Source: Escherichia coli
GTDB taxonomy: Bacteria > Pseudomonadota > Gammaproteobacteria > Enterobacterales > Enterobacteriaceae
Direction: 5' to 3' (one strand)
DNA: 64,000 bases
NCBI RefSeq assembly: GCF_003334305.1
Contig: NZ_QOWS01000002.1
Below are positions 31,871-32,653 of the stretch, in pieces. Position numbers and translations under genes: made by a program. Numbering within the stretch: the stretch's first letter is position 1; the number at the start of each line of letters is the position of its first letter. A model generated the notes under the pieces. It was not told where the DNA came from and searched no databases. It saw only the letters and a program-made list of their open reading frames with translations.

Positions 31871-32455
31871 CTATCCCATCAGCGGGTTTTTCCCTTCCCG
31901 ACGTAACATCTGACACAGCGCGATTAGCGGTAAACCAACCAGCGTGTTAGGGTCACGTCCCTCTAAACGCTCAAACAGCGTAATGCCAAATCCTTCACTC
32001 TTAAAGCTACCCGCGCAGTGCAGGGGATGCTCCTTACGCACGTAATTATCAATCTCCGCCTCGCTCAGGTGACGGAAATGGACGTCAAAAGGCTCCACTT
32101 CTGTTTGTAGATGCCCATTCGCCGAATTAAACAACGCCAGTCCAGTATAGAAGGTGACGATATTGCCGCTGGCTTTGCGTAATTGCAGACGGGCATTTTC
32201 TTCCGTTAACGGTTTACCGGTGATTTCGCCATCAAGAACACATACCTGGTCTGAACCAATAATTAAATGATCCGGATAACGTGACGCCAGAGATTGCGCT
32301 TTTTCTTGTGCCAGTCGAAGCACCAACTGTCGCGGTGATTCGTCGCTGCGTGGGGTTTCGTCGACCTCTGGTGCTGCACATTCAAAAGAGATTTGCAGTT
32401 TTTCCAGAAGAGCGCGACGCCATGGCGAGGTGGAGGCTAAAATAAGTTTAGGCAT
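31871..32455 (-). CDS. yceF: Maf-like nucleoside triphosphate pyrophosphatase YceF
   Basis: ORF trimmed to [21 protein letters not shown]... (194 aa), Maf family. Confidence 0.9.
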
Positions 32456-32622
32456 ATTTTTTTCCATCAGATATAGCGTATTGATGATAGCCATTTTAAA
32501 CTATGCGCTTCGTTTTGCAGGTTGATGTTCGTTATCAGCACTGAACGAAAATAAAGCAGTAACCCGCAATGTGTGCGAATTATTGGCAAAAGGCAACCAC
32601 AGGCTGCCTTTTTCTTTGACTC
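32455..32622 (+). ncRNA. sraB: Candidate small RNA SraB in the yceF-yceD intergenic region; boundaries approximate
   Basis: A 7-bp stem (AAAGGCA/TGCCTTT, 32589-32611) followed by a T-run at 32612-32617 forms a rho-independent terminator on the + strand just upstream of yceD with no + strand CDS before it; position matches my recollection of sraB; the 5' end is not determinable from sequence. Confidence 0.4.
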
Positions 32623-32644
32623 TATGACGTTACAAAGTTAATAT
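32616..32644 (+). promoter_or_regulatory. Near-consensus sigma-70 promoter abutting the yceD start codon
   Basis: TTGACT-17 nt-TAATAT; the -10 element ends about 9 nt before the annotated yceD ATG and no Shine-Dalgarno is apparent. Confidence 0.45.
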
Positions 32645-32653
32645 GCGCGCCCT

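Follow-up and report, generated by a model that had tools for sequence, protein, structure and literature searches.

The spacer between the divergent Escherichia coli genes yceF and yceD has been described before: the small RNA (sRNA) gene sraB, its terminator, the yceD promoters yceDp1 and yceDp2 (here P1 and P2) and the leaderless state of yceD are already in databases or papers. SraB is an established ligand of the RNA chaperone ProQ (PMC5393179). RegulonDB lists two starts for the yceD-rpmF operon and gives P2 the 5′ untranslated region (UTR) string "CCTA" (S4 Table of PMC5230787), and a 2026 preprint cites Tanaka et al. 1989 as the origin of yceDp1 as well as of yceDp2. The yceD message has been reported as "without 5′-noncoding leader" and as yielding far less translation than rpmF, with which it shares an mRNA (Nakahigashi et al. 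2014, PMC4378010). Here we analyze this spacer in a 64,000-nucleotide stretch of E. coli DNA (contig NZ_QOWS01000002.1), referred to below as the window, in which a coordinate plus 1,114,140 gives the coordinate in MG1655 (NC_000913.3).

Our analysis indicates that the spacer is very probably the control region of yceD-rpmF, in which two sigma-70 promoters stand in tandem, an intrinsic terminator lies between them and the message from P2 is leaderless or nearly so. A 501-base query from the locus matched in 5,425 of 5,426 complete E. coli genomes, with an identity of at least 99% in 5,279, and the single difference between the window and MG1655 within 32440-32700 lies in a hairpin loop, at 32530 (C for T). 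According to the list of open reading frames (ORFs) and the MG1655 annotation, the genes follow each other in the order rluC (+), yceF (-), sraB (+), yceD (+), rpmF (+) and plsX (+).

Results

Promoter P2 and the start codon of yceD

The first-pass annotation of the window had noted a near-consensus promoter almost touching the ATG of yceD. TTGACT-17-TAATAT is present there and is the P2 of RegulonDB; its hexamers match the consensus at 9 of 12 positions, and it was the sole sigma-70-like site found in 31700-33600 (shuffle mean, 1.7). The -35 hexamer overlaps the U-tract of the SraB terminator by 2 nt, and the -10 hexamer ends 9 nt before the ATG at 32654. Across the 64-kb window, on both strands, 50 sites reach at least 9 of 12 consensus positions, and only 3 of them are followed by an ATG after 8-9 nt. 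The geometry of P2 predicts a transcription start 0-3 nt before the yceD ATG. Since the UTR strings in the S4 Table of PMC5230787 include the first base of the gene (the entry for sraB is just "T"), the string CCTA contains the A of ATG, and the recorded P2 start thus falls on C 32651, leaving a 3-nt leader, CCU. The sole purine 6-10 nt past the -10 is the A of the ATG itself, with a pyrimidine before it, and a true 5′-AUG start is therefore possible. We infer the exact start nucleotide of P2, as we do the respective shares of P1 and P2 in yceD expression. The transcript from P2 had been proposed to comprise yceD, rpmF and plsX; its first two genes stand, but plsX does not belong to it in the sources, which record P1 and P2 as serving yceD-rpmF only.

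With a promoter in this position, the first-pass annotation had seen two possibilities, namely a leaderless message or a different functional start for yceD. An in-frame TAA lies upstream of the ATG, at 32639-41, no in-frame NTG occurs between this TAA and 32654, and the next in-frame NTG downstream is codon 41. Across an aligned set of 20 homologues with 30-60% identity, M1 never varies, conservation of K5 and P7 reaches 90% or more and the N terminus MQKVKLP is conserved. Taken together, the upstream stop, the lack of an NTG before codon 41 and the conserved N terminus leave another functional start without support. A 7-codon out-of-frame ORF from 32643 was likewise dismissed, having no support. 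The annotation had also stated that no Shine-Dalgarno (SD) sequence precedes yceD, and the calculated pairing with the anti-SD sequence agrees with this, being -0.4 kcal/mol for yceD vs. -8.8 kcal/mol for rpmF in the window. The other possibility, a leaderless message, is in line with the 3-nt leader of RegulonDB, with PMC4378010 and with the missing SD.

Conservation of the promoter-to-ATG layout

We then considered P2 in 92 related loci, comprising 80 species-level genomes (almost all Enterobacteriaceae), Erwinia, Pectobacterium and Ewingella, and nine more distant representatives whose YceD is 31-61% identical and which include a Candidatus Malihini symbiont, Salinivibrio kushneri and a Corallincola-like genome. 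In the 80 species-level loci, the arrangement reads TTGACT-N17-TAATATGCGCGCCCTATG, and the hexamers, the spacer length, the discriminator and the distance to the ATG are all invariant; the same arrangement is found in Erwinia, Pectobacterium and Ewingella. Of the 92 loci, 86 have the very same hexamers and spacing, and the remaining six have TTGACT or TTGACA, TAnnAT and a 16-17-bp spacer. Each of the nine distant loci carries a promoter matching 9-11 of 12 consensus positions, with a spacer of 16-17 bases and a -10 that ends 8-9 nt before the ATG, and their spacer sequences are unrelated. All 92 loci thus share a pattern in which hexamers and spacing are fixed and the spacer sequence is free. 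Hexamers kept at a fixed spacing around a variable spacer are the signature of a promoter and not of an RNA element.

On the coding side of the junction, ATG is the yceD start codon in 92 of 92 loci even as YceD identity falls to 31%, and in no locus is it preceded by a usable SD. Pairing with the anti-SD sequence upstream of yceD ranges from -0.4 to +1.9 kcal/mol in 10 of 12 distant loci, and that of rpmF in the same loci from -6.8 to -8.9 kcal/mol. Two of the distant loci count against this picture. In Salinivibrio (L087), a GAGG stands ~17-20 nt before the ATG, inside the promoter spacer, probably too far upstream to serve as an SD; in another (L088), the contig examined holds no rpmF, leaving no comparison within the locus. 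About two-thirds of the distant loci retain a GC-rich discriminator; in the others it has diverged (L085 and L092, and partly L091 and L093).

SraB, its terminator and promoter P1

Upstream of P2, the first-pass annotation had placed a probable sRNA, SraB, and had proposed an Rfam scan as a check. A scan of the whole window returned SraB (RF00077) at 209.8 bits, well above the gathering score of 130 (E = 7e-44), over model positions 1-169. The matched interval is identical to the ncRNA annotation sraB of MG1655 and lies in the yceF-yceD spacer on the yceD strand, and this full-length match together with the annotation bears out the identification. The start given for SraB in the first-pass annotation, 32455, hit the right element but falls 6 nt inside the annotated start, 32449. 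A permissive Rfam scan of 32380-33300 yielded, besides SraB, chance-level matches only.

The annotation had further claimed an intrinsic terminator for SraB, a claim on which folding, the conservation of variants and Term-seq agree. In the stem, AAAAGGCA (32588-95) pairs with TGCCTTTT, as RNA UGCCUUUU (32605-12) in a hairpin that contains a mismatch and closes on a 3-nt loop, and the tail TCTTT (UCUUU in the RNA) extends to 32617. Among 84 loci (the window and 83 related ones), this segment occurs in 42 distinct variants, nearly all of which form a hairpin followed by a U-tract; upon folding of each sequence, the hairpin variants have a median predicted energy of -10.7 kcal/mol, and many compensatory changes are found in the upper stem. 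An RNA 3′ end near 32612-32622 had been set beforehand as the test of the terminator, and the Term-seq supplement of Adams et al. 2021 lists, in two conditions, a 3′ end labelled sraB at 1146757, which is 32617 in the window. A simple terminator scan did not flag this hairpin, we think because the internal mismatch leaves an ungapped stem of 4 bp; the terminator was therefore judged by folding, covariation and Term-seq rather than by the scan. An RNAalifold consensus of 56 sequences was weak and mis-registered, because the loop region aligns badly, and was replaced by the per-sequence folding.

At the other end of the sRNA, the annotated 5′ end at 32449, which gives a 169-nt RNA, is not borne out by published transcription start site (TSS) data, which put the main start at 32508-10. 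A re-analysis of differential RNA-seq (dRNA-seq) and Cappable-seq data places the SraB 5′ end at +60 from the annotated start (PMC7967276). The TSS-seq supplement of Kim et al. 2012 assigns the same start, with 491 reads, to yceD with a 145-nt UTR; RegulonDB gives a 146-nt yceD UTR for P1 (S4 Table of PMC5230787); and tagRNA-seq names the site yceDp1, at 1146648/49/50 (PMC7075262). Thus, the P1 start and the main SraB 5′ end are the same site, on which four independent sources agree. In the supplements consulted for Ettwiller 2016, Romero 2014 and Yan 2018, neither yceD nor sraB is mentioned. Because SraB shares its start with P1, it is the terminated leader of this promoter, with a main species of ~109 nt, and the first ~60 nt of annotated SraB, along with the first 60 positions of the Rfam model, are probably promoter DNA and not part of the main RNA. 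The idea that SraB is independently transcribed accordingly holds for its own terminator but not for its main 5′ end, which is common to yceD P1. As for a yceD mRNA that starts well upstream, which the first-pass annotation had regarded as evidence against a leaderless message, one is indeed on record from P1, with its 146-nt leader, but P2 is on record too.

The P1 -10 element, TAAACT (32497-32502, +), which serves yceD P1 and SraB, is embedded in the block ATTTTAAACT together with the -10 of yceF, TAAAAT (32498-32493, -), whose TSS maps at 32485 in the Kim 2012 supplement. This block is unchanged across the aligned Enterobacterales, except for one base in two species. The start of yceF (32485, -) and that of P1/SraB (32508-10, +) are divergent and ~24 bp apart, and their -10 elements overlap by 2 bp. 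SraB as annotated, from 32449, would be antisense to the entire yceF 5′ UTR, while the 109-nt form does not overlap the yceF mRNA.

SraB across genera

The conserved core of SraB consists of a small hairpin in the P1 leader (Table 1) and the terminator. In the alignments, the stem of the small hairpin shows compensatory changes from A-U to U-A in Pectobacterium and Ewingella. Among the genera tested, only Escherichia and Salmonella exceed the Rfam gathering threshold. Intestinirhabdus, at 105.5 bits, keeps the full length in a diverged form, and 14 other genera have a match of 34-90 bits, mostly 111-113 nt long, the match in Cedecea being longer (203 nt). The matches of 111-113 nt are short because ~57 nt, which correspond to hairpin 2 at 32509-32565, are missing. 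Of the genera compared, Escherichia, Salmonella and Intestinirhabdus alone carry this segment, and in the Enterobacterales that are without it, the P1 start leads almost directly into the small conserved hairpin. On the minus strand, a terminator-like site at 32560-32582 is the reverse complement of this small hairpin, followed by a T-rich run; as the region contains 3 terminator-like sites, vs. 2.4 expected from shuffles, this one may be due to chance.

Discriminators of the two promoters

The discriminators of P1 (ATGCGC) and P2 (GCGCGCCCT) are both GC-rich, which suggests that the operon may be subject to control by growth rate and by guanosine tetraphosphate (ppGpp). The closest comparison is with the P1 promoters of rrnB and rrnG, for which we confirmed the sequence TATAAT-GCGCCACC-A upstream of a 16S rRNA gene. 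Transcription from rrn P1 begins 9 nt past the -10, an unusually long distance. The P2 discriminator resembles it in being GC-rich, in beginning with GCGC like GCGCCACC and in having its first usable purine 9-10 nt past the -10, and P2 also serves ribosome synthesis; it differs in that rrn P1 has TTGTCA and a 16-bp spacer, whereas P2 has a near-consensus -35 and 17 bp. By this likeness, P2 may be under stringent control. In Salmonella, SraB, the product of P1, is repressed >4-fold by ppGpp, which fits stringent control of a ribosome-related operon.

Table 1. Positions in the window of the elements of the yceF-yceD spacer and of the flanking genes
Feature	Position	Strand	Basis or remark
yceD P2: -35 TTGACT 32616-21, 17-bp spacer, -10 TAATAT 32639-44	32616..32644	+	consensus scan; RegulonDB
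GC-rich P2 discriminator GCGCGCCCT	32645..32653	+	sequence reading; recorded start C 32651
P1 transcription start, main SraB 5′ end	32508..32510	+	TSS-seq, RegulonDB, tagRNA-seq, dRNA-seq/Cappable-seq re-analysis
Invariant block ATTTTAAACT with two overlapping divergent -10 elements	32493..32502	both	Kim 2012 supplement; alignments
sraB (b4418; also pke20), 169 nt as annotated/modelled	32449..32617	+	Rfam RF00077; MG1655 1146589-1146757
Lineage-specific ~57-nt segment: SraB hairpin 2 and A-rich linker	32509..32565	+	alignment; Rfam match lengths
Small hairpin CGCA-AUGUG-UGCG in P1 leader	32565..32577	+	Rfam structure line; alignments
Intrinsic terminator of SraB/P1 leader	32588..32617	+	hairpin 32588-32612, U-tract to 32617; fold, variants, Term-seq
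yceF, Maf-family m7GTP pyrophosphatase, divergent from yceD	31871..32455	-	start codon 32455-32453; ORF list, b1087
yceD, DUF177, 23S rRNA accumulation protein	32654..33175	+	ATG start, without Shine-Dalgarno; ORF list, MG1655 annotation
rpmF, ribosomal protein L32, operon gene 2	33227..33400	+	own strong Shine-Dalgarno GAGGAG

Other features of the region

Downstream of the spacer, a hairpin CTCCCCG-TTGGAT-CGGGGA lies in the yceD-rpmF spacer at 33180-33208, and Term-seq has a 3′ end at its edge (1147348, window 33208); as the hairpin has no U-tract, this may be a processed or protected end. A strong hairpin, CAGTGCCTGCAGCATTGCAGGCACTG, is found at 33539-33568, within the first ~30 codons of plsX, and is followed by a very abundant Term-seq 3′ end (1147708, window 33568), which looks like the terminus of a yceD-rpmF transcript inside the plsX coding sequence. 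In the rpmF-plsX spacer of Pseudescherichia vulneris (L050, 2250-2372), we saw a sub-threshold match to AS5, a Vibrio RNA (56.8 bits vs. a gathering score of 96); such a match occurred in 1 of the 19 loci scanned.

On the other side, palindromic repeats that resemble repetitive extragenic palindromic (REP) elements (for example GCCGGATGCGACG...CGCATCCGGC) occupy 31775-31870, between the convergent 3′ ends of rluC and yceF. Elsewhere in the window, Rfam detected two known elements, the RNase E 5′ UTR element (30252-30588, -, 260 bits) and the PyrC leader (8471-8520, -, 68.7 bits).

Discussion

In the model that we favor, P1 fires at 32508-10 and most of its transcripts stop at 32617, giving a stable, ProQ-binding SraB of ~109 nt, and in any that pass the terminator, yceD would follow a 146-nt leader that has no SD. 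P2, nested at the U-tract of the terminator, would start 0-3 nt before the yceD AUG, and on its mRNA yceD may be translated at low efficiency by leaderless initiation, that is, by direct recognition of the 5′-proximal AUG, with rpmF being translated via its own strong SD. We know of no ligand or factor that controls SraB termination.

The same elements could be arranged differently if P2 were weak or silent. yceD would then be expressed mainly by read-through from P1 and translated independently of an SD, for which binding of ribosomal protein S1 to the A/U-rich UUACAAAGUUAAUAU or a standby site are candidate routes, and the terminator would be an attenuator that sets the output of the operon. 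Several points speak for this possibility, and some of them weigh against a leaderless P2 message. P1 is strong, with its 491 reads, and Enterobacterales conserve its -10 along with the small hairpin and the terminator. Resistance to kasugamycin would be expected of leaderless mRNAs. The resistance value of yceD is 0.4, that is, sensitive (Lange et al. 2017, PMC5230787), although in our view this value is confounded because yceD and rpmF are on one mRNA. The table of Kim 2012 lists P1 and then a yceD-internal site, with no P2 start, yet the same study reported 18 exactly leaderless E. coli mRNAs; and yceD is missing from the only five E. coli mRNAs to which Romero et al. 2014 assign leaders of <10 nt. 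The activity of P2 in vivo rests on a database record and on conservation, and a 5′ end seen at 32651 by S1 mapping might in principle reflect processing. Nevertheless, what the distant genomes keep is only the hexamers, the 16-17-bp spacing and the distance to the ATG, a pattern that marks a promoter and not an RNA element; P2 is entered in RegulonDB as experimentally mapped; and the read-through leader shows no structure around the AUG beyond chance and no unusual folding (z = -0.24). We consider it unlikely that yceD depends on P1 read-through in this manner.

Alternatively, SraB might be a free-standing gene for a trans-acting RNA, with its own promoter at 32449, and its proximity to the yceD promoter would be incidental. 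According to PMC7967276, the original annotation of SraB gave it 169 nt, and Northern blots detected it; the Rfam model spans the same 169 nt, the RNA binds ProQ, and an egg-albumen phenotype in Salmonella Enteritidis is cited, all of which would be compatible with such a gene. However, every TSS dataset examined puts the start at +60, which is yceDp1, and the first 60 nt contain the P1 -10 and the yceF 5′ region. In addition, the pairing of helix 1 of the Rfam model is lost in other genera, as judged by eye from the alignment, and the RNA from P1 to the terminator would be only about 50-55 nt in most genera. A free-standing sraB gene thus seems very improbable to us, and SraB is better described as an operon leader that ends at a terminator than as a gene in its own right, a point that is relevant to work on ProQ ligands in which the 169-nt form is used.

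Returning to tandem promoters with a leaderless or near-leaderless P2 message, the geometry found in E. coli recurs as far away as Vibrionaceae and a Corallincola-like genome, the AUG being invariant and an SD lacking throughout. As comparative evidence that a leaderless housekeeping mRNA functions in Gammaproteobacteria, this is unusually strong. It also offers, in yceD, a natural model on the chromosome for studying how leaderless initiation is linked to the making of ribosomes. A bolder proposal, which we advance tentatively and hold to be somewhat less probable than its opposite, is that yceD is anciently and obligately leaderless across Gammaproteobacteria, with an mRNA that starts with 5′-AUG from a promoter resembling rrn P1, so placed in the 92 loci sampled that the A of the AUG would be the first purine at which transcription could begin. 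If so, YceD synthesis would be coupled to both 70S-type initiation and stringent control, the promoter and terminator of SraB would add an attenuated input in Enterobacterales, and yceD would join the very few conserved leaderless housekeeping genes of a clade in which they are seldom found.

Comparison with known systems

In the literature searched, we found no description of the deep conservation of the promoter-to-AUG geometry, which is a modest extension of what is known and not a new type of system. SraB in the window corresponds to RF00077 in position, strand, terminator and mapped 3′ end, one base apart from MG1655, and differs in its functional 5′ end, which probably lies 60 nt downstream of the annotated one, at yceDp1. 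RegulonDB/EcoCyc records the yceDp2 start, 3 nt before the ATG, at the place to which TTGACT-17-TAATAT in the window points, and yceDp1, 146 nt upstream, fits the TSS-seq data; what does not correspond is that the P2 start is missing from the Kim 2012 table and that yceD is unlisted in Romero 2014.

Like the leaderless mRNAs described in E. coli (lambda cI, Tn1721 tetR, rhlB and pgpA), yceD has a recorded or predicted start 0-3 nt from the AUG, no SD and a low yield. Unlike them, its recorded start leaves CCU instead of a 5′-terminal AUG, it was scored as sensitive and not resistant to kasugamycin, and it is the first of two genes in a ribosome-related operon that has a leadered promoter upstream as well. 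Finally, SraB resembles the 5′-UTR sRNAs that arise by premature termination (Term-seq, Adams et al. 2021) in sharing its start with an mRNA promoter and in ending at an intrinsic terminator before the coding sequence. At yceD, in contrast to these sRNAs, a second promoter directly follows the terminator, such that yceD would not be dependent on read-through.

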